NCBI GenBank assembly: GCA_045640985.1
Contig: JAZUFZ010000017.1
Span: 18,125 to 82,124, forward strand
Length of the DNA stretch: 64,000 nucleotides
Origin: Bacteroidales bacterium
Lineage (GTDB): Bacteria; Bacteroidota; Bacteroidia; Bacteroidales; P3
Reading direction: 5' to 3'
Shown: positions 39,364 to 58,821 of the stretch, one piece after another
Position numbering within the stretch: the stretch's first letter is position 1
Layout: each line of letters opens with the position of its first letter
Notes under the pieces: model-generated
What the model saw: only the letters and a program-made list of their open reading frames with translations
Database searches by the model: none
What the model was told of the DNA's origin: nothing
Made by a program: the position numbers and the translations under genes

Positions 39364-39458
39364 GGTAAGGCCGTAGCTGCGGTGTGGTTCTGGTGTCCCG
39401 CAGAGGGACGGAAGAGGGAGATACCAGAGAGATACCAGGGAGATACCCCAGAGTTACC
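39364..39458. repeat. degenerate member of the GGTAAC...GAGTTACC palindrome family
   Basis: The right arm has GAGATA/GAGTTA at 39418, 39429, 39440 and 39451 (11-bp period) and ends in GAGTTACC. The left arm GGTAAGG...GGTGTGGTTCTGGTGTCCC is only loosely complementary. Confidence 0.6.
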
Positions 39459-39550
39459 AGCCGGACAGAGACGATATCAACATCTACGCAAGATATGATA
39501 AACCGGTTTTTTACGGCATTTTCGCTATTCTATTGATTCATAGCAAGAAT

Positions 39551-39614
39551 CATCCGACGTTCATCCGACAGAAACCGACATCAATGTCGGTTCATGTCGG
39601 ATGAATGTCGGATG
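39551..39614. repeat. 64-bp imperfect palindrome built from 3 x 11-bp CATCCGAC-type units per arm
   Basis: Left arm CATCCGACGTTCATCCGACAGAAACCGACAT. The reverse complement of the right arm is CATCCGACATTCATCCGACATGAACCGACAT. Units start at 39551, 39562 and 39573. 2-nt loop. Confidence 0.85.
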
Positions 39615-39805
39615 CTATCCTCAGAGAACCAGCAACATACGCAAAAAGACATCAAAAATCGAGATTTCACTCTTTCAATGCACAACGATACCTATGCTGA
39701 ACCATGATGACCCTGACTTTTTCCATTCCGACCTGAATAGATCTCTTTGACACTCCATTGAAAAAGTTCTTTGGCGGGTTCTTTGATGAAATCTTTCTCC
39801 GAGAA

Positions 39806-39840
39806 AACAAAAAAAGGGCGCCTCACGAGGAGGCACCCTT
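39806..39840 (-). terminator. rho-independent terminator of the giant gene
   Basis: On the minus strand: GGGTGCCTC-CTCGT-GAGGCGCCC followed by a T7 run, ~45 nt after the stop at 39882. Confidence 0.6.
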
Positions 39841-39881
39841 TTGATTAGAGTGTTATCTAATCAGTCAGTAGGAGGTTCGGA

Positions 39882-42800
39882 TTAGCGAACAACCACTACA
39901 CGACGAGCAGGCAAGTTGCCGACCTTCACCATGTAAACGCCAGAGGTTGGCATAGTGAATTCGTTAACTTCGCTGTAGTTTTCAGCTACGTGATTTACGC
40001 AGCGTCCAACAGCATCGTAGATGTAGATTGACTGGTTAGCGGCACCTTTGACAACGATGTTGCCGTTGGTGCTGTAGATGTTCACGTCGAGAGCATCAAC
40101 ATCGTCAATACCCTGAACAGCTCTGAACTCAGCAACATACTCGGCATCGCCGGTAACGGTGATGGTGCGGGTAGCGTTGGTGTTGCCATCGCTCCACTGA
40201 ACGAATTCATAGCCCTGTCTTGCAGTAGCGGTGATAGTTGCAGTGGTGTTGTAAGCGTAAGAGCCGGAACCGGTAACGGTACCCATAGTAGCATCGCAGC
40301 TTACGGTGATCATGTAGTTCATGGCCACGAAGTTAGCGGTGAGGGTAAGGTTGCTGGTTACAACGATGTCGCGTACAGCGTTGGTGTTACCGTCGCTCCA
40401 GCTGTCGAACTCATAGTGTTCGTTAGCTACTGCAGCGATGTGAGCGGTTGTACCTTCGAGGTAGCTGCCGCCACCGGTTACAGTACCCATAACTGCATCA
40501 TTAACCTGGAGGGTAATGGTGTAGGTCTGGAGTGTACGCTGGAAGTTAGCTCTGTATTCTGCATCATCATTAACGGTAATGGTACGTGGGTTCTCGGTTA
40601 CTGCATCGCCCCAGTTGGTGAAGGTTACGCTTGCATCAGCAGGAATAGCGGTGAGAACAACCTGCTGGCCGAAGAGATACTGGCCAGCACCGGTAACGGT
40701 ACCGAGTTCAGGATCATTAACCGAAGTAGTGATGGTGTAGAGGTTACGTGCATACTGAGCGGAGAATGCTGTATCGGAGAGGATCACAACACGGCGAACT
40801 GCATTGGTGTCACCATCGTTCCACTGAGTGAAGTGATATCCGTGGTTAGCACTTGCGGTGATAGTCACGGTGTCTTCGAATGCGAAGGTGCCGGCACCTT
40901 CTACAGTACCCATGTAGGTAGAGTCAACATTCAAGGTCAGAGTGTAGTTGTTACGTGCGAACTGAGCTACGAAGTTTCTATCGGAGGATACGAGAACGTT
41001 ACGTGGGTTTTCAGTATTGTTGTCGCTCCACTGAACGAAGTGGTAACCATAGTTTGGAGTAGCCTCGATTACAGCGGTGGTGCCATAGTCGTAGCTGCCC
41101 GTACCAGTGGTGGTACCTTCAATAGCGTTGCAGGTAACATTGATGTCGAACTGATCAACTGCGAAGATTGCGGTTACAGCAGTATCGCTGTGTACAAGGA
41201 TCTGGAGTGGGTTAACGGTTTCGCCGTTGCTCCATTCTACAAACTTGTAACCGTATGCTGCCTGAGCATTGATGGTTGCATACAAGCCATAGATAAACTG
41301 GTTGCCAACGCCACCGGTAACGGTAACAGCACCCATTTCTGCATTGTTAGCAGTTGCAGTTACAGTATGAGTATCGATTGCAAAGTTTGCAGTCAGTGTA
41401 GCATCGCCAAGAACCTGATAGTTGTATGGGTTGTCGGTTGCACCATCGCTCCAGTTGGTGAAGTGGTAGTGTGCATCGGCGGTAGCGCTGAGAGTTGCGA
41501 AGGACTCGTACTCATATTCGCCGGAACCGGTAGCAGTACCATTTTCAGCAGCATTTACAACTACTGCGAAGGTCATCTTGGTGAAGAGTGCAGTGAGGTT
41601 CATATTTCCGGTTACTTCAACAACGCGAACGCTGTCCATGTTACCGTCTGCCCAACCTGCGAATACATATCCGTAGTTAGGAGTTACATGGATGGTATCG
41701 TATTCACCATAGAGGATCATACCGTTGTTGGTCTGGGAAACAGTACCATTTTCTGCAGTTACATATACACGGTAGGTGTGACCACCGAACATTGCGGTAT
41801 AGGTAGCGTTGCCCTCTACCACGATGGTGCGGATAGCGTTGGTGTCACCGTCATTCCAGTACCAGAAGGAGTTCTGCTGTGCATCGAGAGGAGTAGCGCT
41901 GATGGTTACTTCTTCACCGTATGCAAAACGTCCGGTTCCTTCTACAGTACCGAGGTCGTTGCCAGCGAGTACAGTGATGTCGAAGGAGTCAGCCACGAAG
42001 GTTGCAGTCAGGACGGTGTCGCCCATAACGGTAACGGTACGTGGGTTGGCTACGTCGCCATCGCTCCAGCCGTTGAAGATGTAACCGAACTTAGGTTCAA
42101 CAGTAAGAACTGCTGTCTCGCCGTAAGCGGTCTGAGCGTCTTCAATGGTGCAGGTACCCATGTTGGTATCGATTGCTACAGATACAGTGTACATGTTAGG
42201 ATCGAACAGAGCCACATAGCTGTTAGGACCATTTACGGTTACAGTGCGGGTAGCATCGGTTACGCCGTCAGTCCAGCCTACGAAGTGATATCCGTAGTTA
42301 GCAACAGCGGTAAGAACTGCCTCACTCATGTAGAGGTAAGAACCAGCACCTTCTACAGTACCACGTTCTGCATATTCTGCAGCAGCGTTGATAGTGTATT
42401 CACGAGGACCGAAGGTTGCTACGAGGTTCAGGTCTTCAGTTACGATAGTCTGATAGATGTTATTGGTGTTACCATCGTTCCAGCTTACGAACTCATAACC
42501 GAAGTTAGCAGTTGCAGCCAGAGTGAGGTAAGAACCGTAGGTGTAACGGCCACCTGCGTTGAGACCGTTGATGGTACCGAGGGCAGGATCGTTTACAGAT
42601 GCGGTTACAGTCAAGGTATCAACTGCGAAGGTTGCAGTCAGCGTGATATCTTCGTTCACGGTAAGAACGCGTGGGTTGTCGGTGTTGCCGTCACTCCAGT
42701 TGAAGAAGTGGTAGCCAGCCTTGGTGCAGGTAGCGCTGATGGTAGCAGTACGTCCACTTACGTAGCGTCCTGCGCCTTCTACAGTACCCATCTTGGCGTC

Positions 42801-45800
42801 AGCCAGCAAGGTCACGTTGTAAGATACGCTGTCGAACTGTGCAGTGTAGGTAGCGTCGCCACCAACGGTGATAACACGTGGGTTAGCCACAACGCCGTCG
42901 TTCCACTGAACGAATTCGTAGCCTTCATTTGCAGTTGCTTCAAGAGTATCTTTTGCACTGAGTACAAATTCACCGGAACCGGTTACGGTACCACGTTCTG
43001 CAACGTTGGCAACAGCGGTGATAGTGAATGTTGTATTAGCCTCTTCGAAGATTGCGGTGTATTCTGCGTCACCGGTGATGGTGAGTACGCGTGGGTTGTC
43101 GGTGTTACCGTCGCTCCAGCGTGCGAATACGATGTTGTCTTCGAGGTTGGTATCGATAGCTTCGATATTAGTCGTACGGTTATACAGGTAGCGGCCTGCA
43201 CCGGTTACAGTACCGTAAGTAGAGTTAACTGCTACGGTGAAGGTATCAGGTGCGAAGTATGCCATGTAGAAGTTACGTGCGCTGGTGAACTCGAAGGTAT
43301 ATGGGTTCTCTCTGCTGTTGCCGCTCCAGTAATTGAAGTGGTAACCGAATGCAGGAATTGCCTCGATAGTAACTTCGGTGCCATATACAAACTGGCCAGC
43401 ACCGGTAACAGTACCCTGAGCTACGTTGTTGGAAACAACATTCAAGGTGTGGGTATCAGGCTGGAAGATAGCGGTCAGCAAGGTATCGCTGGTTACACGC
43501 AGACGGCGTGCAGCCTCGGTATTGTTGTCGCTCCAGTTTACAAAGCGGAAGTTAGTATTTGGTATAGCTTCGATGTTAGCGTAGCTGTTTACAGCGTAGG
43601 TGCCAGCACCGGTAACAGTACCCATAGTTGCGTCGTTGGTGTTCAAGGTAACGGTGTACTGAGCATCAACTGGCTCGAACATTGCAATGTAGGTAGCAGG
43701 ACCTTCAACCTGAACAGTACGTGGGTTGTCGGTAATGCTGTCTTCCCACATCGTGAATGCGAAGCCGGCACGTGGGTTAGCTGTCATTTCGGCGTTGCTC
43801 AGGTATGCGTAGTTGCCGCTTCCGGTAACGGTACCCATACTGTTGTTAGCGCTGAGAACAGTGATTGCGAACTGTGCAGCTGAGAATTCTGCTACGAGTG
43901 TAGTATCGTCGGTTACAGTTACGCGGCGGGATGCGGTAGTTACACCGTCATTCCAACGTACGAACTGGTAGCCGTAGTTAGCGGTTGCTCTTACGGTAGT
44001 GGTACCGAGGTAAGCAACGTCAGCATCTTCAGATACTGTACCCATTGCAAGGTCAGCGGACTGAACAGTTACGTGGAAGGTATCCTTAACATAGATTGCA
44101 GTCAGGTTGATGTTTTCTCTCAACTGGCCGCTGCGTACCATCGTGGTCACGCTATCACTCCACATCTGGAATACATAGCCGTGGTTTGCGGTGGTGCTGA
44201 TAGTGTAAGGAGAATTGTAGTTCAAGGTATCTGCGCCTTCTACAATACCTGCACCGGCAGGAGTTACGTGCAGTGCAATGATATATGCGTTAGGTGCGAA
44301 GGTTGCAGTGAGATTTACATCGCTTTCAACGATCATCACGCGTGCGGTATCGGTGTTGCCGTCGCTCCAGGACTCGAAGTGGTTGCCGAGAGTTGCATTA
44401 GCGTTCAGCACGAGTTCGGTACCGTGTTCAACGGTGGTGGTCAGACCCTCAACGCCTTCGATAGAGATGCTGCCCATAGCTGCGAAGCCTTGAGATGCAA
44501 ATGCGATGGAAACGTTGTAGGTGTTGATTTCGAAGTTAGCGGTGTAGTCGGCATTCTGGGTTGCAACAATCTGACGGGTCAGGTTGGTGTCACCGTCTGC
44601 CCATCCCGTGAAGTGGTAACCGTATGCAGGAACTGCTGTCAGAGTAACAGTGTCATTTGCATCGTAGATACCGCTACCGAGTGCTGTACCCATATTGTCG
44701 TTGTTTGCAAGTGCATTTACAGTGTAGCGTGCTTCAGTAGCGAAGTTAGCTACGAGTGTATCGTCATAGAGAACGGTGTAGCTGCGTTCAGCATTGATTT
44801 CACCATCGCTCCAGCCGTTGAAGTAGAAGCCTGCTGCAGGAACTGCGGTGAGGGTGATTTCGCTGTTGAATGGGTAGCTGCCTGTACCGGTCACCATACC
44901 AGCGTTAGCAGGATCAACCACTGCTGCGATAGCGAAGGTGTCAGGTACATAGTAAGCCGTAATATTAATGTTGTCGTAAACGCGGAAGCCGATAGCCTGT
45001 TCGGTTTCGCCGTTGCTCCAGTTCTGGAACTGATAGCCGTAGTAGTTAGGTGCGTAGAGAACTGCGGAATCACCGTAGCCGTACATACCAGTACCGCGGA
45101 TTTCGATGTCTTCGAATTCAGTTTCAGCAGCAACTTCGAAGCTGTCCTTAGCAAAGATTGCAGTCAGAACAGTATTCTCGACTACTTCGATGGTGCGTAC
45201 GGCCTCTTCGTTACCGTCGCTCCATGCTACGAAGTAAGCGTGTTCGTTAGCGATAGCCTCAATGTCCACCATTGCGCCATAACCAACTTCGTCGAAGGAT
45301 GCAGTAGCGGTACCCATTACGGTATCGTTAGAGCGTACGAGTACACTGTACAGGTCTGCCTCGAAGTAAGCGGTCAGGTCGTAATCCTGGTTCATCAGGA
45401 GACTGCGGCTTGCTGATGGATTTTCATCACTCCATTGTACGAAGTGGTTACCAACAGTAGGAGTAGCTGTGATGTAAGCGTAAGAGTCTTCAACATATTC
45501 GCCTTCGCCTTCAACGGTACCGAGTTCTTCGTCGTTGGAAGCAAGGGTTACGTTGTACTGCTGAGGAACATACAGACGGATGTCATCGATGCAGCAGCTG
45601 TATTGGTTGCTGTAGTACCATCTGAATGCTATGCGGTCAGCATCTTCCGGAACTTCGCTCAGGTCGATGGTAACTTCGCTCATGGAACCATTGTGGCTGG
45701 ATACCTGCTGAATCTGAGTGAAGGTGTTGAAGTTGTTGTCGCCTTCCTTGATATAACCAACGGTCAGCGTACCATAGGAAGCGCTTTCCGTCTGTCTCCA

Positions 45801-48800
45801 GAACTTCATCTTCATCGTATTGAGTTCAGCACCCATCTTAGGCAATGCTGCATAGTTATAGCCGCTGCCGTAGAAGGTCAGAGCCTTGCTGCCGCTATGC
45901 TTGTAGTAGTAAGATCCGGAACTGATTACGTGAGGACGAACACTACCGGTTGAGTAGGTCTTCCAGCAGTTGATTGCGTCAGCATCGATGTCATAAGTAT
46001 AGCCTTCGTAGCTTTCGAAGTCTTCTTCGTAAGGCAGTGCGCTTTCACCGCAGTACTGGAAGCCGTTGCCGGCAACCCAGCGGGAAACAAATTCACCGTC
46101 TTCATCGCAGATAGCTCTTACCTTCCAATTGATGGTAGTTACTGCTACGAGGTCTTCGAGATTATAGTTTTCAGATGCAGATCCTTCAAATACTACCGTA
46201 TCCATACCGTTAGCCCACAGTACATATTCGTAAGATGCGGGATCGGTTTCCGGATCAGGAGTTATACTGAAGTTTACAACGCCCATTTCTTCTCTTACAG
46301 AAGCAACGGCGAGTATAGGCTGACGGCAGAGAGGAGCAGTTGCAAAGATTGCGCTGTTCCACAGAGTGATGTCGTCAGTACCTGCACATGTAGGAGCAAT
46401 ATAGAAGTAGTAGTCTGCGTCAGCAGTGAGATCTTCAAGATCCAAACCGAGAGCAGTTACACTTGTGAGTTCAGCAGCTGCGATACCCTCGATAGTGAGA
46501 GGTTCGGTGCTGAGAACATAGTTGTAATCCAGGTTACCTGCTTCTGAAGGATACCAGTCGATATGGGCTGCATCAGCAGTTACGCCGCTTACATTGATTC
46601 TGTTCACGCGGTTGCAACCAGTGCTTGATGCGAAGCAGAACTTGATGTTTGCGTGTCCTTCTACTCTTCCAGGACCATTACCCTGTGACTGAGGATTTGT
46701 CAAGCTGAATGCGGTACCGTCTTGGTACTTATAGATAGTAGTATAGCCGTCTGTTTCGGTACCTGCTGCAGAATATCCATAGGATGAAGTGTGTGATTCA
46801 CCTGCTGCCTGGTTGGTGATGGTGGCAATTACGATATTGCTCTGGCCATCCCAGAACCATGGAGTAGAGAACTCGAAGGTCATCTCACCTGCTTCGTCAC
46901 CCTCGGAACGACTGATAGGTCCGCATACCTGGGTAAGATTGCTGTGAGGAACCATACCAGCTACAGTTGCACTGGTAAATTCATCCATGCTGGTAGAACC
47001 GATAAAGATATAGAGATCTTTGTTATAACCTGCTTCTTCAGTCCAGGTGTAAGAGATAGATTCGATGCTGCCTGCACCATAGTTCTGGGCAGCCATCTCA
47101 TCAACAGTGATAATCTGCTGTGTATAGCTGTTGCCCCATCCGGTGTAGGTAGGAGCACCGCTGTATTCATCTTCACCGTCACCGATGGTTACGCATCCGG
47201 AAGCAGTACCTGCTGCGGGAACGTTGAAGGATACAGAAGCTTCAGCACTGTTGCCTTCTTCGCACATTGCGCTTACGTAAGCACGATAGGTTTCGCCTGC
47301 AACGGAGAATGGAATAACTGCAGTATTGGTGTTTACGGTCATAATCTGAGCGTTGGCTGAAGAATCTTCAGGTTCGCCATATACCCAGATTACCTGCCAT
47401 TCGGTTTCCTCGCCGAACTCGCCGCGCTCCCAGTTCAGGGATGCTGCCAGAGAGGTTACGTTGGAAACGGTCAGGTTCACAGGAGTAGCACATGCAGGAG
47501 GCATGGTGAAGCTTACTTCCTTCCAGCTGCTGCGTGAGCTGCCGCAAACATTAGTTACATAGATATAGTAGGTTTCGCCTGGAACGAGATCCTCAACATA
47601 AGCCTCAGTTACGGTGAGGTCTGCCTCTTGGTAATCGTCCTCGGTCAGTTCTGCCAGGGCACCGTCTTCGAGAGCTTCGCTGCTGATTACGTATGCGAAG
47701 TTGCCTTCCATACCTTCATAGAAGTTCCAGGTGATGGTAGCGGTGGTAGTACTGGTGATGTCAGCTGCAAGGTCAACAACCGAGCGGCAGTCAGCGAAGG
47801 TTCTGAACATGTATGGAGCCCATACACTGTAGCCTTCTTCATGACCGTTGGCGTTGCAACGTGCGCGTACATATACATAGTAGTCAACCTCTGGATCGAG
47901 ACCGTTGAGTTCGCAAGTGAGTGCGTTGCCGGAGAAGTTGTAGCTGTCGAGAGAATCGATAGTTGCAAAATCAACCACAGCGGTGTCGCTTACTAACACG
48001 TCATAGTATCCAACATAGTCGGAAGTAGAAGAGGTCCAGCTGAGAGTAGCGGAAGAAGAGGTGATGTCGCTTGCTGCAATTTCGGTTGCAGGTTCGCAAG
48101 CCTCATTTTCTTCGCAGATGGTGAAGCGGATGTTGTTGCGTACGCTGAGTACGTCACCGCTTGCGCCAGAAGTTGCAGCATTGTCCGGAGTGAACTGGGT
48201 GCCATCTCTGTACACATATACAGACTTGTTGCCAGTGCAGGAGGTTACATTGTAGGAAGATCCACTGCTCCAGCTGCCGTTCACGTTGTTGATAGCCACA
48301 ACCAGGTTGGAGGTGCCGTCATACATGAAAGGTTCTGCCAGAGTGAAGGAGTTCCAGCCGATAGTGGTACCCATGTGTACATTGTGTGCCACCAGGGTCA
48401 GCTCGCTGCTAGGAACAAAGTCATCGGTACCGGAGAAGGTCGATTGGGTGGTAGTACCCAGGTAGATATCCACCATGCGGTCCTTAACAGCTGCGTTCTG
48501 GATAGCGAATGCGGTGATAGGACCAGAGGTGAGTTCTTCCTTATCGAAGATCTGCTGGCTGTAACTGTAGTCGTATGTAGAGTAGAGAGGCATATAGCTG
48601 TTGGTTCCGCTGCTGTTGCCCATCTGATGTACATCGCAATAGTTAAGAGCCTTGGTCTTAGCGTTAACGCTCAGCCATGCAGGTGAACATTCGTTGCGCA
48701 GATAGAAGTAGTAACCGGTTTCGCGTTCGAGACCGCTTACATGATATACTCTTTCATAGCCTTCACCTTCTGCGGTGATGGTCTGGTATTCAGCAGCTGC

Positions 48801-51800: not shown

Positions 51801-54800
51801 AGCGTCAAATGCCGTCAGGATTGAGCTTTCAGGCATGTTGGCGAGTTCGTCATCAGTCAGAACGGTAGTATCGATGATAATCTGGTATTCACTTGCATAG
51901 TCACCGTCGGATGACCAGTTGAGCGTTACCACGGTAGGATCATCGTTGTCATAATCTACAACAAGGTCTTTTACCTGAGGACATGCCATATCCAGACCGC
52001 AGTGGTTGATGGCCAGCTGCAGACGGAAGTTTGAGGAAGTACCAACGGAAGAAGACGGCTGGTTGTTGTAGGTATAGTGATCATTGTCACTATATTCATA
52101 ACGGGAAACACCAGAGGTGGTCTGATTACCATAGTAGTAGTTGTAATTACTGCTGTAACTACCCTTATTATCCACGAAAGTAATCACGAGGTTGCTGCTT
52201 CCGTCAAAGGTATAAGGAGCAATCAGTTCGAGATCCTGCCATCCGGTATTTGCACCAATCTGGCCTTCCCATGCGAGAACGGTATTGCTGCTGTTCATGG
52301 ATACCCAGCCGCTGGACAGAGAAGCGGCATCGGTCTTGGTCAGATACATCTGAACTGGACGGATATCGTTTGCAGTCTTACAGTTGATGGAAATAGTGTT
52401 GATGGTAGTAGGCAGAAGTTCTTCAGCCTGGAAGAGCTGCTGTGTGTATGCATAGTTGTAGAATACATAACCTGGGAAATAGCTGCTGTTGGAAGTACTG
52501 GTACCGAGGGTATCGTTTACTACCTCTTCACAGTTGAAGTAACCGAGATTAGGAGTGGTTACAGTACCACTGATCCAGCGGCTCTGGCTTTCACCACAGT
52601 TAGCACGTACATATACATAATACATAGTATCGCGTACGATGCCTTCTTCGCGGGTGAAGGTATAGCGGTTAGCGTTGGTTACTACGATAGGTTCGTTCTG
52701 CTCAAGTTCTGCCTCGGTGAGAGGTTCGTTGCCATAGAGCAGGTCGAAGGAAGTAACGTTTGCATCAGGATTGGTCCATACTGCGGTGAACTCGCGGCGT
52801 TTCACGTTCTCGAAAGTGAGAGCGGTAGGAGTAGCGCAAGGTTCGATGTTCAGGTAGATGGTCCAGAGCTGATAGATAGTAGGATCAGCTGATACTACAT
52901 AAACCTGGAGACCGCCTTCGTAGTTGTAGTTGTTGCTGTTGCTCCAGTTGAATCCGTTCACACCGTCAATCTTGGCGGTTGCGCCGTCGCTTACGCTCAG
53001 GCGGGCACGTACGGAGGTGAGATCAACACCATAAACTACATTTACATTAACAGTATGATTAACGCTGTCGATAACAGCATTACCGATCTGCTGGTTAGCA
53101 TTGTAGAGGCTGAAGGATGCGATATAGGTTGCATCGTTCTTGGTAGTAACTACAACAGAGTCGTTGCTCCATGCAGAATAACCGTTCTCTTCGCCGCAGT
53201 TGCCGCGTACGTGGAGCGTATATTGGGTATTAGGCAGGAGGCCGTTCAGTGTGTAGGATACTACATTAGCGTCATTAGGAGTTACGTTGGAAACGGTAAC
53301 CGTTTCGGTAACGGTCTCGTAACCGTAAGGAGTTACGGTCTGATGTTTGTATTCAATCTCCCAAGTGTCGGCATCACCTACAGTACCGTTGGTCCATTTT
53401 ACTGGGATGCTGTAAGCAGATACACCTGCGAGAGCGTTATATACAAAGTTGGTAGGCTTAGCACAGGTAGCACCGGAAGCAACTACGATGTTGTCGATGA
53501 GGGCAACGTTGCTTGCAGAGGTGGAAGTGCCGGCACCGGTGTAGCGGAATGCCAGACGGACACCGTCAGCAAATGCCATGGTATCAGTGCTGAAGAGGTG
53601 GTCACGGGTGGTCATGCTGCCGCTTGTAGGAATAACCTCAACAGCGGTAAATTCTTCACCGTCGTAAACACCCAGTTCAAGAGTACCGTTGGAAACCTGA
53701 TAATCGAAGGTGAGCATCAGGGAAGCCACTTCGTCATTGAACTCAGGAAGCACTACGATAGAAGGAGCCGTAGTGGTAGCCACCATGGAGAGTGCATAGT
53801 TGGCATTACCGGTCTGGTATGCGAATGCCAGAGGAGCGGTAGTGCGGTTGTTGCTGATTCCCGGGAAGTCGAAGCAGTAGAACACATGGTCAAGATCTGC
53901 ACGGCCGTGGAAATCTTCAGGAGCATTCTGTACGGTAGTAGAATAGCTGATAACGCCGTTGAAGTCTTCGGTCCAAGGCAGTTCAGCGTGGCTGATGGAA
54001 GCGCATCCGGTAGAAGCTACAACAGGATTGCTCCACATACTGTAGTTATTGCCGCATACGGCGCGTACTGCCAGTGCATAGATGGTGCCTGGGAGCAGTT
54101 CTACGTCGTGGGAAGCAAATGAGAAGCCTTCGCGTTCGTCTGGATCATCTACGTCCACCATATCATAGAGATATGCGTTGGTGTCGCTGTTGAATTCCAT
54201 TGCGTTGGCCTCGTTGAAGTTTGCACAAGCCTTATATACTACCTGATAGATAGGACTGTCGTTTTCGTCGTCAATCCAGGTAAGAGGAATATCATTGGAA
54301 GAAATCTCGGTTGCGTCGAATGCCAGTTCAACAGGCTTTTCGCAGAGAGGTTTCTCTCTCAAGGTTACGTCATCGATGGTGATGGTGTAGCTGCCGGCTG
54401 CGGTGTTGTTGTTCACCTTCATGGCTACGAAACGACCTTCACCTTCATAATCGGTAAGGTTGAGTTTGTACTCTTCAAATACAGTAGAATCAATATTAAT
54501 AACGTCAACCAATTCAAAAGTATTGGTATCGGCTGGGTCGCTCATCACACCAATCTGGAGCACACCGTCTGCATTTGCAGAGGAGGTCTTTGCCCAGAAG
54601 GAGAGCTGTACCTGGCTCATTTCATATCCGTCGATAACCTCTGGGAGGATAGCGATGGAGTTCTGGTATGCGCCGGCGTTGCCGTTTACTACAAACTGCA
54701 TTGCATTACCGCTGCGGCCTAAATTGGTAGCAAGCTTAGGAGTGGTGGTAATGGTGCTGTTCGACTGCCAGCAATATACGTTGAAGGTACCTGCTCCAAC

Positions 54801-57800
54801 TTCATCACCGTCGAAAGTGGTGGTGAATGGGAGATCCCAAGGAGCGCAGGAAGTTCTGCCCTGAGTCATGGCATACTGGAGACCGTAGCTGTCGGAGCAC
54901 TGTGCCAGTACGTAGAACAGGTAAGGAGTATTAGGAGCCAGACCAGAGATAGTCAAGGTAGAGTCACCCTGGCAGAGTTCCGATACATAGTCGCCGCTGT
55001 AGATAGCAGTGTTGAATGGATCGAAAGCAAGATAGTTGTCGCTCTCAAGTGCGCGTACTGCATATACCATGTGGCCGGTAGTGAGTTCGCGTTCAGCGTT
55101 ACGGGCATCCTCGGTGAAAGCGATGGTTGCCGTGGTAGGAGTAGCGATTACGAAATCGGCACTCTTCATGCTGAAGCAGTCAGGCTCGGTCACACACATG
55201 CGGAAGCGCATGTTTGGACGGTATCCGGAAGTGCCACGGCTGCTATAGGAGCCTTCATAAGAATAAATACTTGCGCCGGAAGCGGAAGTACAGAGAACGT
55301 ATGGATAGATATAACCCGAACCCTCAATCTGAGCGGTGTCACCGGTTCTCTTAACCTTGATTATGAGGTTGCCGTTGGCAGGATCATATTCAAATGGGGT
55401 GGTCAGCACGATGTCAGCCCAAGTACCTCTGATCAGACGAACCTCACCGCTGTAAACCTGCTGCATTGCCGGCAGGGAGCTGGTATCGGATGCTGAAGAG
55501 AAGGAAGCTCTCGTGTCCTGAGCCATATAGACTTTTACAGGATAGGAAACATCACCGCTGTTGCCAGGATTAACCTGATAGCTGATGCTCTTGATCTGTC
55601 CTGGGAACACATCCATGTTCTCAAGGTCAGAAGCCTTGTAGATAGTCCAGGAAGTTGCATAATCATAGCTGTAATATGCAGGGAAATATCCTGAAGTAGA
55701 GGTACCAGTACCATAAACTACATCACGATAGCTCTGCTCACCGCAATCTACGCTGGTGGAGAAGACAGCCACTGCAGACCAGTCGCCATAGGTCTCATCA
55801 TCGCAGTTGGCGCGTATGGCAACCTTATAGCTGGTCAGTTCATCCAGACCCTGGATGGTGTAGGTGGTATCGCTGCCGGTAGTAGTGAACTCACCGAGCA
55901 TCGTAGTAGGATCGTCTGGGTTGAATCCCTCGACTGGTCCGTAGATGATGGTGTAGTTATCGGCATTCTCCAGTGGATAGCTCCATGTGAGGGTTGCGCT
56001 GGTAGCGTCAGACTCTGCACATGCTACGTCTGTAACTTTCTTACAGGTTGCGATATGACGAACTCTGAAGTTGTCTATTGCAGTAAGATAGTTGCTTGTA
56101 CCTGCACGTGAGAACACGATGCGAGCGTTGCCGGTCACGTCGAGATTGTCGCACAGAATATCCACATTGAAATTAGAATGTGCAGTATAACCAGCCGGAG
56201 CCTCGATGGTGTCGAAATAAACTACGGAGTTGGAACCTTCAAGCATGTAGCCGATATACAATGGGCCACAGGAAGAATAACTCTCAAAGCTCAGGTCAAA
56301 CACCACCTCCATCTGATTCAACGGATGGTTGAATACTGGAGTTGCAAAGGTGTTAGGTCCGTTTACATACAGATATTTTGATGAGAACGTATGGTAGCTT
56401 GAAGCCGTGGAAGCAGGTTTCACTGCTGCCGGATAGCTGCTGCTAAGCGCGATAGGAAGCCAGCACTCAGGAAGGCTGCCTTCCGGATCAGCATTGAAGT
56501 TGTTGGCATAAGGAACATCCAATGCCTGGCATGCAGTGTGAACGCCGAGCAGAGAAACCACTTCGCTGCTGTCGGTTGCGCTGCAGACGCCGCGTACATA
56601 GAAGTCGTAATCCTTGTTAGGGGTAAGACCTTCTACCAGGTAGCCGGTCGTATCCTCTACGGTTACGGTATAATGAACATCATCCATGCCGAATCCTGCG
56701 GTATCGTAGTCGATAATCCATGTGGTTGCCTCACCGATATTATTCCAGGAGAGTTCTACGGTGTTGGAACCGGCATTGGCTACGAGATCGATTGCAGGAA
56801 GACAGGATGGCATTTCAGTAATCTCAAGATCATCAAATACGGTGTAGTATGATGAACTCTCACCGTGAACATCGATGATGATGTATCCTTGAGTGATAGG
56901 AGAAGATGCCAGATAGGCTGAGAACTGGGAATAGGAAGTACTTGTAACGTGGAATACCGTTATAGTATCAAATTCCGGAAGTTCGCCTGCGGTAACGCTT
57001 GGGGCAACACCGATGGTGATGTCACCGAGATAGCTTGTGTTCTCCAGACGGGCCCACAGTGAAAGCTGGAGTTCCTGGAGATTATCAATGAGACGGGCAA
57101 CCGCTACAGTATAGGCATATCCATAGGTGTACATACACTTACCGGTACGGGCACCTGTAGAACTTGCCTGCGGATACTGAGGATCTGCCTGATACAGGAT
57201 AGTCCATCCTGTAGGAATTCCGTCTACGTTATTGAAGTTTTCTGAATAAGGTGCAGCCAGAATACTGAAAGCTGGTGAAGAAGCAAGGTTACTTACATTT
57301 TCAGAACTGCAGTGGCTTCTTACCTGAACGGTATATTCAGTATTAGCAGTCAGGTTGGAAAAATCAGCATAGGTAGTGAAAGGTTCGCATACGACAGAGT
57401 CGATAGGACCTTCAGGACCATACAGGATAGCAGTATAGTAGGTACCGGCATCGGCATGGGAATTTTCCCATGTTGCGTGAACTCCCATAGTGCTATAGTT
57501 AGGAGTTGCCGTTACATGAGCAGGAGCATAGCAGAAATCATCACCGGCTGGAACCATCACGAACTTGGTGTTCGGACGGGCAGCATCCGTACCTGCCGTA
57601 GTAGTGTTGTCAAGGCTTGCATAAGAAGGATCTGAGTCGCTTTCACGATACATCGCCTTATGGTCAGATGTGCTTCCACTATTATAGAATGTCACAGAAT
57701 TGTTATAGGCGCTACCCACATGGGTAACCGTAATAACAATACTGCTGGTTCCATCATAGTAGAATGGAGTAGCCAGTTCCACTGTGAACCACCCGGAGGG

Positions 57801-58163
57801 GACCGTCAGCGGATTGTCGAAGGTTGCCACCTGCGTCAGATCAGCAGCAGGTGTCCAAGCAGTGAGCGTGGTTGACGAGGAAGTACCCATGTAAACGGTG
57901 TACTGACTCGGAATAGAACCAGAGCCATTGACTTGGAACGCAATTGACTGGATGTAGGAAGGAACTTCTCCCAATTCCTCTGAGGTGTAAATCATCTCAC
58001 AACGGCCATTCTTGTAGTAGTTCGTCATAGGGACATAGTATCCCGATGATGTACCTGTACCAATAATGACTTCGTTCTGAGCCATCACAGAGGAACTTCC
58101 AGGCGTTAGCCACGGCACTACCAGCGCCGCTACTAACAACATTCTAAGTAAAAAGTTTCTCAT
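39882..58163 (-). CDS. giant (6,093 aa) T9SS-sorted multidomain surface/adhesin-like protein
   Basis: Single open frame of 18,282 nt. Signal peptide MRNFLLRMLLVAALVVPWLTPGSSSVMAQ. Six unassigned 'A' modules, six adhesin/choice-of-anchor-J-like modules, ~19 FN3-like domains, 26 InlB-B-repeat-like units and a type-A T9SS C-terminal domain. Confidence 0.9.
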   Translation of the reverse strand: MRNFLLRMLLVAALVVPWLTPGSSSVMAQNEVIIGTGTSSGYYVPMTNYYKNGRCEMIYTSEELGEVPSYIQSIAFQVNGSGSIPSQYTVYMGTSSSTTLTAWTPAADLTQVATFDNPLTVPSGWFTVELATPFYYDGTSSIVITVTHVGSAYNNSVTFYNSGSTSDHKAMYRESDSDPSYASLDNTTTAGTDAARPNTKFVMVPAGDDFCYAPAHVTATPNYSTMGVHATWENSHADAGTYYTAILYGPEGPIDSVVCEPFTTYADFSNLTANTEYTVQVRSHCSSENVSNLASSPAFSILAAPYSENFNNVDGIPTGWTILYQADPQYPQASSTGARTGKCMYTYGYAYTVAVARLIDNLQELQLSLWARLENTSYLGDITIGVAPSVTAGELPEFDTITVFHVTSTSYSQFSAYLASSPITQGYIIIDVHGESSSYYTVFDDLEITEMPSCLPAIDLVANAGSNTVELSWNNIGEATTWIIDYDTAGFGMDDVHYTVTVEDTTGYLVEGLTPNKDYDFYVRGVCSATDSSEVVSLLGVHTACQALDVPYANNFNADPEGSLPECWLPIALSSSYPAAVKPASTASSYHTFSSKYLYVNGPNTFATPVFNHPLNQMEVVFDLSFESYSSCGPLYIGYMLEGSNSVVYFDTIEAPAGYTAHSNFNVDILCDNLDVTGNARIVFSRAGTSNYLTAIDNFRVRHIATCKKVTDVACAESDATSATLTWSYPLENADNYTIIYGPVEGFNPDDPTTMLGEFTTTGSDTTYTIQGLDELTSYKVAIRANCDDETYGDWSAVAVFSTSVDCGEQSYRDVVYGTGTSTSGYFPAYYSYDYATSWTIYKASDLENMDVFPGQIKSISYQVNPGNSGDVSYPVKVYMAQDTRASFSSASDTSSLPAMQQVYSGEVRLIRGTWADIVLTTPFEYDPANGNLIIKVKRTGDTAQIEGSGYIYPYVLCTSASGASIYSYEGSYSSRGTSGYRPNMRFRMCVTEPDCFSMKSADFVIATPTTATIAFTEDARNAERELTTGHMVYAVRALESDNYLAFDPFNTAIYSGDYVSELCQGDSTLTISGLAPNTPYLFYVLAQCSDSYGLQYAMTQGRTSCAPWDLPFTTTFDGDEVGAGTFNVYCWQSNSTITTTPKLATNLGRSGNAMQFVVNGNAGAYQNSIAILPEVIDGYEMSQVQLSFWAKTSSANADGVLQIGVMSDPADTNTFELVDVINIDSTVFEEYKLNLTDYEGEGRFVAMKVNNNTAAGSYTITIDDVTLREKPLCEKPVELAFDATEISSNDIPLTWIDDENDSPIYQVVYKACANFNEANAMEFNSDTNAYLYDMVDVDDPDEREGFSFASHDVELLPGTIYALAVRAVCGNNYSMWSNPVVASTGCASISHAELPWTEDFNGVISYSTTVQNAPEDFHGRADLDHVFYCFDFPGISNNRTTAPLAFAYQTGNANYALSMVATTTAPSIVVLPEFNDEVASLMLTFDYQVSNGTLELGVYDGEEFTAVEVIPTSGSMTTRDHLFSTDTMAFADGVRLAFRYTGAGTSTSASNVALIDNIVVASGATCAKPTNFVYNALAGVSAYSIPVKWTNGTVGDADTWEIEYKHQTVTPYGYETVTETVTVSNVTPNDANVVSYTLNGLLPNTQYTLHVRGNCGEENGYSAWSNDSVVVTTKNDATYIASFSLYNANQQIGNAVIDSVNHTVNVNVVYGVDLTSVRARLSVSDGATAKIDGVNGFNWSNSNNYNYEGGLQVYVVSADPTIYQLWTIYLNIEPCATPTALTFENVKRREFTAVWTNPDANVTSFDLLYGNEPLTEAELEQNEPIVVTNANRYTFTREEGIVRDTMYYVYVRANCGESQSRWISGTVTTPNLGYFNCEEVVNDTLGTSTSNSSYFPGYVFYNYAYTQQLFQAEELLPTTINTISINCKTANDIRPVQMYLTKTDAASLSSGWVSMNSSNTVLAWEGQIGANTGWQDLELIAPYTFDGSSNLVITFVDNKGSYSSNYNYYYGNQTTSGVSRYEYSDNDHYTYNNQPSSSVGTSSNFRLQLAINHCGLDMACPQVKDLVVDYDNDDPTVVTLNWSSDGDYASEYQIIIDTTVLTDDELANMPESSILTAFDATSYTIQNLMPYTDYYLYIRVKCNGEGQDDGISTWNSIPFKTHAACRAPENISVAFTSKTTAVMSWSADATQDANYRYIISPTAVPNPDNYNVSASGLNVTSIGLSNLVPDQHYYFYLSNVCGGNDGNSPYVCYEFDMVPSCPAPINVHLTDKAPTGVTVAWESDTANFADENEWQVTCYAVDSTGAQMGDAQVFTVSNPSAVVTYLTPATNYRLEVRSICNGTPSITPAVLNFNTPVKVDCTQIGTGTSRSTSAPYNWGNYYTQILFRADEMHAMGLDAGMINAISLSYPAASAEKKVYAFMGTTTMNSFGSASDRIPQNQMTQVCGPLVRGANEGEGAFTYNFTTPFEWDGTSNLVVGILSNQPDGTSQSTSSSFTPQYTSTSYTSVVACYQDGTQLTVSDPFATGNTTTLTYRPNVTFCFLAGDCPAVSHVTAQNVASHTADVVWYTGGSETSWQVVRSEEPLTESALAEATPVTVETPSISYDDLVIDVTYYVYVRPICSEESKWVGTEFTTLPSCSAPSIKSLYANEDTVICVVAHDGEYGEAQEFEYEFWNAQVEDAEHISIVAGDSVAITSLPNIAIYNWRVRSICGEGDTSRWTNGDQFQLCGTMSLPFLDEFAQDSPSLGCWRVAGSSPTLVTSGTTAYLNFDAYGTYTMRSIITPVVPAALNTTMVTFKARRYSSSYEGQVKLYALSIEGDAITNLQELTTIELNSTDYENYEIYLDEFGEIAGDRIMFSVEKVGSSENWIYLDNFGMNYIPDCRRPNSFRLAAQQVNAHSVDLTWEQPGECVAWIITDTLTGQTYQIPYMAATVEGTNVNVNLGGLTANTNYVFSVRAVCDNSTSEPAVNFVNVRTLNDEATFTSYAVADYQVGTTSIDAINHVIEVTVRADADIANLVSTFRVSNNATVLDAAGHVLVSGAGVLDFTYGQFVYLQPAGQDVAATEWEIRVLIEGCPTLYGLTANKVERTRLNLNFNTADSALYTFQLVYDTVALTAEELAAAEYQTITAEGEGYERVYHVSGLERETGYYFYLRNECSPAWLSVNAKTKALNYCDVHQMGNSSGTNSYMPLYSTYDYSYSQQIFDKEELTSGPITAFAIQNAAVKDRMVDIYLGTTTQSTFSGTDDFVPSSELTLVAHNVHMGTTIGWNSFTLAEPFMYDGTSNLVVAINNVNGSWSSGSSYNVTSCTGNKSVYVYRDGTQFTPDNAATSGASGDVLSVRNNIRFTICEENEACEPATEIAASDITSSSATLSWTSSTSDYVGYYDVLVSDTAVVDFATIDSLDSYNFSGNALTCELNGLDPEVDYYVYVRARCNANGHEEGYSVWAPYMFRTFADCRSVVDLAADITSTTTATITWNFYEGMEGNFAYVISSEALEDGALAELTEDDYQEADLTVTEAYVEDLVPGETYYIYVTNVCGSSRSSWKEVSFTMPPACATPVNLTVSNVTSLAASLNWERGEFGEETEWQVIWVYGEPEDSSANAQIMTVNTNTAVIPFSVAGETYRAYVSAMCEEGNSAEASVSFNVPAAGTASGCVTIGDGEDEYSGAPTYTGWGNSYTQQIITVDEMAAQNYGAGSIESISYTWTEEAGYNKDLYIFIGSTSMDEFTSATVAGMVPHSNLTQVCGPISRSEGDEAGEMTFEFSTPWFWDGQSNIVIATITNQAAGESHTSSYGYSAAGTETDGYTTIYKYQDGTAFSLTNPQSQGNGPGRVEGHANIKFCFASSTGCNRVNRINVSGVTADAAHIDWYPSEAGNLDYNYVLSTEPLTIEGIAAAELTSVTALGLDLEDLTADADYYFYIAPTCAGTDDITLWNSAIFATAPLCRQPILAVASVREEMGVVNFSITPDPETDPASYEYVLWANGMDTVVFEGSASENYNLEDLVAVTTINWKVRAICDEDGEFVSRWVAGNGFQYCGESALPYEEDFESYEGYTYDIDADAINCWKTYSTGSVRPHVISSGSYYYKHSGSKALTFYGSGYNYAALPKMGAELNTMKMKFWRQTESASYGTLTVGYIKEGDNNFNTFTQIQQVSSHNGSMSEVTIDLSEVPEDADRIAFRWYYSNQYSCCIDDIRLYVPQQYNVTLASNDEELGTVEGEGEYVEDSYAYITATPTVGNHFVQWSDENPSASRSLLMNQDYDLTAYFEADLYSVLVRSNDTVMGTATASFDEVGYGAMVDIEAIANEHAYFVAWSDGNEEAVRTIEVVENTVLTAIFAKDSFEVAAETEFEDIEIRGTGMYGYGDSAVLYAPNYYGYQFQNWSNGETEQAIGFRVYDNINITAYYVPDTFAIAAVVDPANAGMVTGTGSYPFNSEITLTAVPAAGFYFNGWSDGEINAERSYTVLYDDTLVANFATEARYTVNALANNDNMGTALGSGIYDANDTVTLTAVPAYGYHFTGWADGDTNLTRQIVATQNADYTANFEINTYNVSIAFASQGFAAMGSISIEGVEGLTTTVEHGTELVLNANATLGNHFESWSDGNTDTARVMIVESDVNLTATFAPNAYIIALHVTPAGAGIVEGADTLNYNSPYTISTTANHGYVFQMWSDSVTTMVRSGQLRENINLTAIYVKDTFHVTVQSADLAMGTVSEDADVAYLGTTTVRATANYGYQFVRWNDGVTTASRRVTVTDDTTLVAEFSAAQFAITVLSANNSMGTVTGSGNYAYLSNAEMTANPRAGFAFTMWEDSITDNPRTVQVEGPATYIAMFEPVDAQYTVTLNTNDATMGTVTGAGTYAVNSYANIEAIPNTNFRFVNWSDNNTEAARRLRVTSDTLLTAIFQPDTHTLNVVSNNVAQGTVTGAGQFVYGTEVTIEAIPAFGYHFNYWSGNSRENPYTFEFTSARNFYMAYFAPDTFTVAVNSTYGTVTGAGRYLYNRTTNIEAIDTNLEDNIVFARWSDGNTDNPRVLTITGDAEYTAIFEEANTTFTITAVANVAERGTVTGSGEFVLSAKDTLEATANEGYEFVQWNDGVVANPRVITVGGDATYTAQFDSVSYNVTLLADAKMGTVEGAGRYVSGRTATISATCTKAGYHFFNWSDGNTDNPRVLTVNEDITLTATFAVDTLTVTASVNDPALGTINGLNAGGRYTYGSYLTLAATANFGYEFVSWNDGNTNNIYQTIVTEDLNLVATFGPREYTINAAAEYAERGTVEGAGSYLYMSEAVLTAVANYGYHFVGWTDGVTDATRTVTVNGPNSYVALFDPNMYTVSVAIDTNMGTCTIEDAQTAYGETAVLTVEPKFGYIFNGWSDGDVANPRTVTVMGDTVLTATFVADSFDITVLAGNDLGTVEGTGRFAYGEEVTISATPLDAQQNSFWYWNDGDTNAIRTIVVEGNATYTAMFGGHTYRVYVTAENGTVSQTNNGMILYGEYDTIHVTPNYGYVFAGWADGNMDSVRVVEVTGNMNLTALFTKMTFAVVVNAAENGTATGSGEYEYESFATLSATADAHYHFTNWSDGATDNPYNYQVLGDATLTANFAIDTHTVTATANNAEMGAVTVTGGVGNQFIYGLYATINAQAAYGYKFVEWSNGETVNPLQILVHSDTAVTAIFAVDQFDINVTCNAIEGTTTGTGSYDYGTTAVIEATPNYGYHFVQWSDNNTENPRNVLVSSDRNFVAQFARNNYTLTLNVDSTYMGTVEGAGTFAFEDTVTITASANHGYHFTQWNDGDTNAVRRVVILSDTAFSAQYARNLYTITTSVNDPELGTVTGAGQYLFGQQVVLTAIPADASVTFTNWGDAVTENPRTITVNDDAEYRANFQRTLQTYTITLQVNDAVMGTVTGGGSYLEGTTAHIAAVANEHYEFDSWSDGNTNAVRDIVVTSNLTLTANFVAMNYMITVSCDATMGTVTGSGSYAYNTTATITATARQGYEFVQWSDGNTNATRTITVTGDAEYVAEFRAVQGIDDVDALDVNIYSTNGNIVVKGAANQSIYIYDAVGRCVNHVAENYSEVNEFTMPTSGVYMVKVGNLPARRVVVVR
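39885..40109 (-). other. region encoding the T9SS type-A C-terminal sorting domain of the giant protein (last 75 aa)
   Basis: IDDVDALDVNIYSTNGNIVVKGAANQSIYIYDAVGRCV...SGVYMVKVGNLPARRVVVVR, the typical Por_Secre_tail pattern. Confidence 0.8.
40110..45557 (-). repeat. 26 tandem ~70-aa InlB-B-repeat-like (Listeria-Bacteroides repeat) units, diverged at the DNA level
   Basis: I parsed all 26 units by eye. Consensus: Y.(V/I)T(V/L)..N....GTV.G.G.Y.......I.A.(P/A)N.GY.F..WSDG.T.N.R...V..D..LTA.F. 5,448 nt / 26 = 69.8 aa per unit. Confidence 0.85.
46632..47195 (-). repeat. giant-protein module A, copy 6 (approximate bounds)
   Basis: GCVTIGDGEDEYSGAP...YTQQII..DEM...PWFWDGQSNIVIAT...HANIKFCF. Confidence 0.55.
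48114..48638 (-). repeat. giant-protein module A, copy 5 (approximate bounds)
   Basis: YCDVHQMGNSSGTNSYMPLYSTYDYSYSQQIFDKEEL...PFMYDGTSNLVVAI...NNIRFTIC. Confidence 0.55.
50535..51080 (-). repeat. giant-protein module A, copy 4 (approximate bounds)
   Basis: DCTQIGTGTSRSTSAPYNWGNYYTQILFRADEM...PFEWDGTSNLVVGI...YRPNVTFCF. Confidence 0.55.
51999..52532 (-). repeat. giant-protein module A, copy 3 (approximate bounds)
   Basis: NCEEVVNDTLGTSTSNSSYFPGYVFYNYAYTQQLFQAEEL...PYTFDGSSNLVITF...NFRLQLAINHC. Confidence 0.55.
55192..55748 (-). repeat. giant-protein module A, copy 2 (approximate bounds)
   Basis: DCGEQSYRDVVYGTGTSTSGYFPAYYSYDYATSWTIYKASDL...PFEYDPANGNLIIKV...YRPNMRFRMC. Confidence 0.55.
57548..58076 (-). 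repeat. giant-protein module A, copy 1 (approximate bounds)
   Basis: VIIGTGTSSGYYVPMTNYYKNGRCEMIYTSEEL...PFYYDGTSSIVITV...ARPNTKFVMV. Confidence 0.55.
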
Positions 58164-58242
58164 AACTTTTTGGATTTAATTAATTAATTGAGTGAATTTT
58201 ATATATTTCAAGGTTTATTTGCATAATACACATATTGAACTG

Positions 58243-58250
58243 CAAAATTA
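58243..58250 (-). promoter_or_regulatory. candidate -7 box (TAATTTTG on the minus strand) for the giant gene
   Basis: CAAAATTA on the plus strand, ~80 nt upstream of the ATG at 58163, inside a ~280-bp very AT-rich tract. Confidence 0.3.
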
Positions 58251-58481
58251 TATACTTTTCAACAAATACGCAAATTTTTTTGTGACTTTTTTTTCATAAA
58301 TTTTTCATTATATTAAATATCAACACTTTATGCTGTTGAAAATTTTTATAAACAGCCTGTTGATAACCCTGCACGATTGTTCATAAGATTTTCCGCCCGT
58401 TTCCTCCCACGCTATATATATAATTTAATGAAACCATAAATAAAAAGTCCCCCGGAACCAACCTCAAAACCGGACAGAAAT

Positions 58482-58560
58482 TCCCCGAAATCGCTCCCGA
58501 AACTGGAGGAAAATCCCCCGAAAACGCTCCCGAAACCGGGAAGGAGTCCCCGAAAAGTGC
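58482..58560. repeat. 33-bp (3 x 11) tandem repeat, ~2.4 copies, of CCCCGAAA/CTCCCGAAA words
   Basis: TTCCCCGAAATCGCTCCCGAAACTGGAGGAAAA / TCCCCCGAAAACGCTCCCGAAACCGGGAAGGAG / TCCCCGAAAAGTGC. Confidence 0.75.
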
Positions 58561-58607
58561 TTATTTTCCCCTCCGGACAGCCCAGAATCCCCTCAAATCA
58601 GGCCCCG

Positions 58608-58724
58608 GGTAACTCCCATATATCTCCCATATATCTCCCATGTAGGTAGCATAAAACACGAATTTTCCGCCGTCCCGGACACAGCCCTACCAGGGAGATA
58701 CCAGAGAGAAACCCGAGAGATACC
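58608..58724. repeat. degenerate 117-bp member of the GGTAACTCCC...palindrome family
   Basis: The left arm GGTAACTCCC(ATATATCTCCC)x2 has TAACT/TATCT at 58610, 58621 and 58632. The right arm has GAGATA/GAGAAA/GAGATA at 58695, 58706 and 58717. Both arms are 11-bp phased. Confidence 0.7.
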
Positions 58725-58735
58725 TCAAAAAAACA

Positions 58736-58815: not shown

Positions 58816-58821
58816 TCCTTG

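Follow-up and report, generated by a model that had tools for sequence, protein, structure and literature searches.

The contig JAZUFZ010000017.1 (assembly GCA_045640985.1) of a Bacteroidales bacterium raises the question of what kind of protein is encoded by a giant gene on its reverse strand, and how such a gene came to stand there. The window, which is the whole stretch of 64,000 nucleotides (nt) that was analysed, contains this gene at positions 39882..58163. The giant protein is probably a lipopolysaccharide (LPS)-anchored multivalent adhesin, which, in the gut or rumen, would bind glycans or cells with a Cys-rich binding head that is carried on a Cys-poor stalk. This reading is drawn from domain content, predicted folds, export signals and relatives, and it first requires that the gene be real.

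The giant gene is real and intact, and its host is an uncultured member of the Bacteroidales from gut or rumen. The open reading frame (ORF) comprises 6,093 codons and a TAA stop, and the ORF listing and the direct translation both show zero internal stops, as an earlier note on this DNA had described for 6,093 amino acids (aa) at these positions. The same-strand alternative frames over the ORF contain 292 and 389 stops, and at the local base composition a run of 6,093 codons without a stop has a probability of ~1e-122. The predicted protein has a mass of 663 kDa and is very acidic, with a pI of 4.1 and 1.2% Lys. In a cluster at 90% identity there are five full-length members, 6,093 or 6,094 aa long, and they come from assemblies in ENA, Logan and NCBI. 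P0165 has the same sequence as the window protein and is probably the window's own record, and the other four members represent three further alleles. The four alleles differ pairwise by 61–94 residues and one single-residue indel, and every allele is in frame. Tandem DNA repeats were not found by TRF inside the giant ORF, near-identical DNA repeats were likewise absent, and the repeat units of the stalk (R units) are 60–78% identical in DNA. An assembly artefact was excluded because full-length in-frame alleles are present in other public assemblies and the DNA identity of the R units never exceeds 78%.

The protein was parsed into modules with hidden Markov models (HMMs) that were iterated from single copies inside the giant protein, and Pfam and NCBIfam scans were made beside them. 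The parse features a signal peptide, six A modules, 19 F modules (fibronectin type 3, fn3), six B modules, two Ig-like X modules, 26 R units and a C-terminal domain (CTD), 60 domains in all. This is the ~60-domain order that the earlier note had proposed; 18 of the F modules were recovered by HMM and one divergent F at aa 2627–2730 was assigned by eye. The divergent F, which the HMM missed, resembles by eye the F that precedes B6 and gives a faint Fn3-like hint in Pfam (E 0.12). The parts of the protein are as follows, where slot orthologues are the proteins encoded at the same chromosomal position in relatives and T9SS is the type IX secretion system.

58080..58163 (aa 1–28), reverse strand: predicted Sec signal peptide MRNFLLRMLLVAALVVPWLTPGSSSVMA, then QNE, read from the translation, without a lipobox Cys
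45558..58064 (aa 34–4202), reverse strand: Cys-rich head of 33 modules, from HMM mapping and Pfam fn3
57561..58064, reverse strand: A1, representative of the six A modules
55203–55715, 52017–52508, 50541–51071, 48123–48623 and 46638–47186 (A6), reverse strand: the other A modules, from HMM
45558..46049, reverse strand: B6, representative of the six B modules
56799–57266, 56040–56528, 54339–54845, 53460–53993 and 49509–49973, reverse strand: the other B modules, from HMM
40113..45557 (aa 4203–6017), reverse strand: stalk of 26 tandem Flg_new_2 (divergent InlB B-repeat) R units, from HMM and PF18998
39885..40112 (aa 6018–6093), reverse strand: predicted T9SS C-terminal sorting domain of 76 aa, from TIGR04183, DUF6383 and alignment with slot orthologues

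The slot orthologues carry N-termini equivalent to the signal peptide of the giant protein. The modules of the head are arranged in the order A-F-B-F-B-F / A-F-B-F-B-F-X-F / A-F-F-F / A-F-F-B-F-X-F / A-F-F-F / A-F-F-B, and the B boundaries lie within about 30 nt of those given before. The family matches that had been expected for fn3 and for the InlB B-repeat were obtained. The fn3 model PF00041 scores 156 and 154 bits on two head segments against a gathering score of 25, with 12 stretches reported, and Flg_new_2 (PF18998) scores 649.3 bits on the stalk against 23.6, with 23 stretches, while PF09479 scores 60 bits. The R units are ~70 aa each and have a mean pairwise protein identity of 34% with a maximum of 52%. 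The two X modules are homologous, with 29% identity, and a homologue search with these two modules gave no match.

The head is built of diverged block duplications. Block S1 resembles S2 with 24% identity over about 800 aa, S3 resembles S5 with 30% identity over 480 aa, and S4 resembles S6 with 30% identity over 500 aa. The distribution of Cys separates head from stalk: there are 79 Cys in aa 1–4202, 4 in the 1,815-aa R array and 1 in the CTD. The earlier note had placed a Cys at almost every head junction, and at least one is found at 30 of the 32 module junctions, with a Cys density of 5.9% at junctions versus 1.9% across the head. The usual patterns are C-x17-22-C closing each fn3 and C-x5-6-C closing each A, and both Cys of the B module are conserved in at least 90% of the relatives' sequences. 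The Cys of the head probably form disulfides that staple the modules together. The stalk is also poor in Lys (0.44%).

The A module has no Pfam or NCBIfam model; in Pfam, DUF4082 is matched faintly by 5 of 45 A members, with a best E of 4e-4. Word-indexed searches gave the impression of a rare family, with 4 matches for aa 1–455 and 6 for the A profile, and this was overturned by an exhaustive HMM search, in which the A profile matched 11,496 representatives of clusters at E <= 1e-3, of which 1,524 also pass E <= 1e-30. The best 150 of the 11,496 matches are nearly all multi-copy proteins of roughly 700–6,700 aa, and 86 of these 150 end in a CTD similar to that of the giant protein. The A module mostly occurs in several copies within giant proteins of Bacteroidales and Cloacimonadota. 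Named examples come from Bacteroidales, Prevotella and Cloacimonadota metagenome-assembled genomes (MAGs) and are annotated solely as "fibronectin type III" or "choice-of-anchor J/D" domain-containing proteins. An AlphaFold 2 (AF2) model of A is all-beta, with a predicted local distance difference test score (pLDDT) of 94.6 and a predicted template modelling score (pTM) of 0.90. Its best template modelling score (TM) against the PDB is at most 0.55 and the best E is 1.4e-3. The A module is a widespread domain family without a Pfam or NCBIfam name or a close fold in the PDB. The weakly matching PDB structures comprise PHR domains, domains of the phage baseplate, central fibre or tail, and an esterase that bears a carbohydrate-binding module (CBM). 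In BFVD one uncultured-phage protein matches A with a TM of 0.83 and 26% identity, and weak matches are given by many minor tail proteins. A-like sequence was not found by tblastn in 50,697 GenBank phage genomes nor in PHROG, and the link between A and phages is made by the one BFVD model.

The B module of the giant protein has no Pfam match and is predicted to be a divergent jelly roll of the choice-of-anchor-J or cleaved-adhesin type. Four of the six B copies match the choice-of-anchor-J model NF038128 (cut-off 30 bits) at E <= 10, with a best E of 1.6e-6, and no NF038128 match was given by the whole-protein NCBIfam scan at E <= 0.01. Among 30 B modules from relatives, 25 match NF038128 (best 2.8e-14) and 4 match MAM. 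The AF2 model of B6, made with a 30-sequence alignment, has a pLDDT of 90.3. Foldseek superposes this model on the K1–K3 cleaved-adhesin domains of Kgp with TM scores of 0.74 (3km5, K2), 0.69 (3m1h) and 0.68 (4itc), an E of ~5e-7, a root-mean-square deviation of 3.3–4.6 Å and 16–20% sequence identity. Further superpositions were obtained with CBM16, 61, 4, 22 and 11 and with MAM domains. Sequence searches of the PDB with the A and B profiles gave nothing under E 0.1. A kinship between A and B was also considered and was rejected, since the profile-profile comparison showed no relationship. The earlier note held that no function could be read from the sequence; the head, however, carries twelve jelly rolls of lectin or adhesin type, which are also the polymorphic parts of the protein.

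Export by the T9SS is suggested by the CTD. When the last 82 aa were scanned alone, the CTD scored 29.9 bits on PF19910 (DUF6383, cut-off 23.7), a family described as a putative T9SS targeting domain (PMC9722745). A predicted PorU cleavage site, VQ|GIDD, lies just before the CTD, which contains IVVKGA and GVYMVKVG and ends in a basic RRVVVVR tail. These motifs correspond to published definitions, namely a small-residue cleavage motif, motif B, motif D with GxY and motif E with a basic residue (PMC11969387, PMC10202324). In P. intermedia the cleavage consensus is PT/GI, and PorU cuts type-A cargo at a small-residue motif while PorV shuttles this cargo (PMC10202324, PMC9143113, PMC11969387). Cleavage by PorU is followed by attachment of the new C-terminus to anionic LPS (A-LPS) (PMC10202324, PMC9143113). 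The CTD aligns with the C-termini of the slot orthologues, in which x|GI(D/A/S), GVYM(V/I)KV and the basic tail are conserved. CHU_C, a type-B CTD model, gives 13.1 bits on the giant protein (E 0.11). Three further ORFs of the window bear on secretion.

36168–37022, reverse strand: DUF6089 outer-membrane beta-barrel, PorG-like, 123.8 bits on the T9SS PorG model (cut-off 130)
1447–3042, forward strand: PD40 and OmpA protein, PorE/CHU_0125-like, 288–301 bits (cut-offs 600–620)
13239–14453, forward strand: 404-aa cargo with a type-B CTD, the second T9SS cargo in the window, TIGR04131 35.2 bits (cut-off 35), CHU_C 35.3 bits

The organism probably has a T9SS because the window holds a PorG-like gene, a PorE/CHU_0125-like gene and a cargo with a type-B CTD. 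The PorG-like gene is located two genes downstream of the giant gene, between DUF4837 and UppS/BamA, and the order is the same in the related loci L041 and L062. The PD40 and OmpA ORF may be N-terminally short because its family match begins at model positions 65–68.

The four alleles show which parts of the protein vary. There are 142 variable positions, and they make up 4.5% of A, 3.5% of B, 1.1% of fn3, 1.5% of R and 0% of the CTD and the signal peptide. Variable sites number 80 of 2,015 in A and B together versus 43 of 3,128 in F and R (Fisher p = 5.6e-9). In A6 (aa 3660–3842) 31 of 183 residues vary, mostly owing to a divergent A6 in one strain (P0161), which is likely a recombination tract. 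The pattern fits A and B as the specificity-bearing parts, though the events are few.

These features can be joined into a possible mechanism. The Sec signal peptide would deliver the protein to the periplasm, where the modules of the Cys-rich head would fold and probably become stapled by disulfides. The T9SS would then recognise the 76-aa type-A-like CTD, and PorU, if it acts as on characterised type-A cargo, would cut the CTD at about VQ|GIDD and join the new C-terminus to anionic LPS. The protein would be tethered by its C-terminal end, with the 26 Flg_new_2 repeats serving as a Cys-poor and Lys-poor spacer beside the outer membrane. The 4,200-aa head would point outward, perhaps by 150–200 nm if it is extended, which is a rough estimate. 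The twelve jelly-roll modules of the head, six A and six B, are the presumed binding modules and would be spaced by the fn3 and Ig-like units. Adhesion to glycans or cells would be multivalent, with A and B setting a specificity that may vary between strains.

Several results weigh against this reading. The CTD does match TIGR04183 (T9SS type A), as had been expected, but its 23.5 bits exceed the cut-off of 23 by a slight margin, and on PF18962 its last 82 aa reach 22.8 bits against a cut-off of 27. Genes for PorU, PorV, PorZ, Sov and porK/L/M/N are not within the window, which matters for anchoring versus release. The PDB matches of A, weak at E >= 1.4e-3, name no ligand. The earlier assignment of B to the choice-of-anchor-J or cleaved-adhesin group stands as regards the NF038128 matches of relatives and the Kgp-like fold (TM 0.68–0.74), but the only copy with a score shown, B1, reaches 20.9 bits on NF038128 and falls under its 30-bit cut-off, and Pfam Cleaved_Adhesin (PF07675) matches neither any B copy of the window nor any of the 30 relatives at E <= 0.1. 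The excess of polymorphism is dominated by the divergent A6 of one strain, so it may reflect a single recombination and not sustained diversifying selection.

The same architecture and export would also suit a protein that is released to the medium or to outer-membrane vesicles, where it would act as a soluble, non-catalytic, CBM-like scaffold that captures polysaccharides. True CBMs (CBM16, 61, 4, 22 and 11) are among the top structural matches of B, the relatives come from fibre-degrading communities of the rumen and hindgut, and some T9SS cargo goes free instead of being anchored (PMC10202324). However, Pfam and NCBIfam scans of the protein found no catalytic domain or dockerin-like partner module, an 1,800-aa spacer array by the anchoring end best suits a tethered protein, and the CTD is of the type-A/DUF6383 kind that is typically LPS-anchored; release is judged unlikely, if worth keeping in mind. 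The giant protein could instead be a gliding-motility or track-borne adhesin like SprB of Flavobacterium johnsoniae. SprB is about 6,500 aa long, and the giant protein is comparable at 6,093 aa and shares a T9SS-dependent, repetitive and filamentous character. The window contains no gld genes, and to our knowledge gut Bacteroidales are generally non-gliding. The motility adhesin RemA does have a type-A CTD, but SprB itself has a type-B CTD and an adjacent SprF/PorP gene (PMC10202324), whereas the giant protein has a type-A-like CTD and its gene has no PorP/SprF neighbour. A role in gliding is very improbable on this evidence.

A protective or decoy coat is almost as improbable. Long, dense, acidic fibres would repel phages, predators or host factors, and A would mimic the receptor-binding domains of phages. 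The A fold does have weak matches among phage tail, baseplate and fibre domains and a good one in an uncultured-phage protein, and one A module shows strain-level allelic replacement. Jelly-roll similarity is generic, however, A-like sequence is absent from the phage genomes and PHROG searched above, and the neighbourhood has no defence-related genes. The chance that the gene is an artefact or dead, with mis-assembled repeats or a pseudogene that is open by chance, is negligible. The genome is uncultured and repeat arrays are classic assembly traps, but the four distinct full-length alleles differ by substitutions and an indel without breaking the frame, the DNA identities and the length of the open frame speak the same way, and the variation is uneven, with the CTD and the signal peptide invariant. 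The anchored multivalent adhesin is retained as the probable reading.

The origin of the gene can be approached through its neighbours, which are housekeeping envelope genes. The downstream side carries an epimerase, DUF4837, the PorG-like DUF6089 protein, UppS and BamA, and the other side carries LptF/G, RseP and Dxr. When GTDB species representatives were scanned with LptF/G, 80 loci with 56–66% identity came up in rumen, hindgut and faecal Bacteroidales MAGs, and no LptF/G relative above 66% identity was present among these representatives. The host is related to rumen and hindgut MAGs, "bacterium P3" and Ca. Colimorpha. Six of the 80 loci keep the epimerase downstream of LptF/G, and five of them show the content that intervenes between the two genes.

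L049: nothing (26 bp)
L041: 660 aa
L062: 1,132 aa
L053: 1,164 aa
L028: 1,308 aa

For the sixth locus, L030, the reading covers just the first 2,469 aa of an ORF containing B and R. The four slot proteins of L041, L062, L053 and L028 share a layout of signal peptide, N-terminal B, 5–11 R units and CTD, and that of L028 additionally has an A-like piece. The terminal modules of the giant protein, B6-R26-CTD, match this layout. The simplest reading is that the giant protein is an expanded positional orthologue, because the same lptFG-epimerase slot is empty or holds short B-repeat-CTD proteins in relatives; an ancestral B-Rn-CTD slot gene would have been lengthened N-terminally by module blocks while its repeat array grew. 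Different large CTD proteins with B modules lie just downstream of LptF/G at 11616–19022 of L030 (2,469 aa) and 11575–17565 of L045 (1,997 aa), and their remaining content differs. Because L030 and L045 hold these different large CTD proteins there, the slot seems to be a hot spot of variable genes for surface proteins.

A more far-reaching proposal is possible, though on present evidence doubtful. In this proposal A would be a new and very widespread ligand-binding "warhead" of T9SS cargo that is akin to a phage receptor-binding fold. The slot gene would have grown tenfold by accretion of warheads and spacers, and strains would exchange single warheads, A6 for example, and so alter the specificity of adhesion. 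If true, the giant gene would be an example of growth by block accretion from a slot gene (B-repeat-CTD, 660 aa) at a conserved chromosomal position.

The giant gene is a predicted monocistronic unit with its own putative promoter and terminator. The earlier note gave non-coding flanks of 650–730 bp, and the measured flanks are 733 bp (39149–39881) and 658 bp (58164–58821); small ORFs within them look like noise. The signals are as follows.

58243..58274, reverse strand: putative Bacteroidota-type promoter (TTTG, 20 nt, TAATTTTG), a pattern match 80 nt upstream of the ATG
39812..39842, reverse strand: intrinsic-terminator-like hairpin with a T-run, 13 pairs (7 G-C), starting 40 nt past the stop

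The pattern TTTG-N19-21-TAnnTTTG, which we take to be the Bacteroides/Bacteroidota promoter consensus, has 6 matches in the window versus 0.58 expected, and all four of the matches that were mapped sit just upstream of an ORF start. The terminator proposed earlier is present as a hairpin, but it spans 39812–39842 and not 39806..39840. About 660 bp separate this hairpin from the next gene downstream.

The flanks also contain repeats. An 11-nt-period repeat, GGGAGATACCAGAGAGATACC, occurs in both flanks in direct orientation at 39415–39460 and 58688–58724 (also 39388–39450 versus 58665–58727). It has 5 matches in the window, every one in these two flanks, with 0 expected by chance, and it could be a footprint of gene enlargement or movement, or else a shared regulatory element. 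The upstream flank features CCCGAAAAC-type repeats of 11-, 22- and 33-nt period at 58467–58812, with A-tracts about one helical turn apart, and the DNA upstream of the putative promoter may be intrinsically bent. In the downstream flank a near-perfect inverted repeat of CATCCGACA-like units is located at 39551–39614, between the terminator of the giant gene and the epimerase promoter, and it has 31-nt arms that are 90% complementary and a 2-nt spacer.

Elsewhere in the window, three ORFs have no Pfam or NCBIfam match: 5625–6956 (forward strand, 443 aa), 6969–8006 (forward strand, 345 aa) and 62784–63305 (reverse strand, 173 aa). The 173-aa ORF is kept upstream of dxr in most related loci. A 475-aa ORF at 58819–60246 on the forward strand was rejected as a gene; it lies exactly opposite LptF/G (58822–60231, reverse strand), has no family match and can almost certainly be regarded as a shadow ORF. 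Scanning the window for Rfam families and for tRNAs gave no matches.

Most huge proteins in bacteria are surface proteins (PMC11573180). In Bacteroidales from gut and rumen, giant surface proteins form a sizeable share of the genome and probably determine what the cells stick to, and almost none has been studied. The locus described here is a cleanly parsed example of 60 domains that is intact in several strains. As a building block of such proteins the A module is one of the commonest, and it now has a confident model; the series of a single slot (empty, 660, about 1,150, 1,308 and 6,093 aa) shows how giants may be assembled. The earlier note considered a protein of this size and composition unusual; it is not very unusual because Bacteroidales MAGs commonly encode proteins of 2,000–6,700 aa with the same A/F/B/R vocabulary. 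No new kind of system is revealed, and the gene is a very large yet recognisable case of a common, little-studied protein class.

The closest known systems are adhesins of Prevotella and other Bacteroidales. Putative adhesins that combine fibronectin type 3 with choice-of-anchor J are a common architecture of T9SS cargo in P. intermedia (PMC11969387). MAG proteins such as MCR4659623.1 (P0030, 5,398 aa) use the same A/fn3/B/Flg_new_2/CTD vocabulary and the same export signal. In P0030 and P0084 an A/F/B head precedes 14 R units, whereas the giant protein has 26 R units and a head of 33 modules, and the best relative outside its own cluster has ~32% identity over the N-terminal 455 aa. The gingipains and HagA of Porphyromonas gingivalis share the fold of their K1–K3 domains with B, and the cleaved-adhesin domain recurs several times per polyprotein in these proteins. 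The gingipains are T9SS type-A cargo, as the giant protein is predicted to be. Unlike the gingipains, the giant protein has no protease domain and no sign of processing between modules. SprB is likewise a giant, repetitive, T9SS-dependent surface filament of ~650 kDa, but it depends on SprF, carries a type-B CTD (PMC10202324) and is composed of other repeat families, in contrast to the type-A-like CTD found here. The 26 stalk units belong to the divergent branch of the InlB B-repeat/Flg_new "Listeria-Bacteroides repeat" of Listeria. InlB features a single B-repeat, which acts in receptor activation; the 26-unit array of the giant protein, judged from its position, is most simply a spacer.

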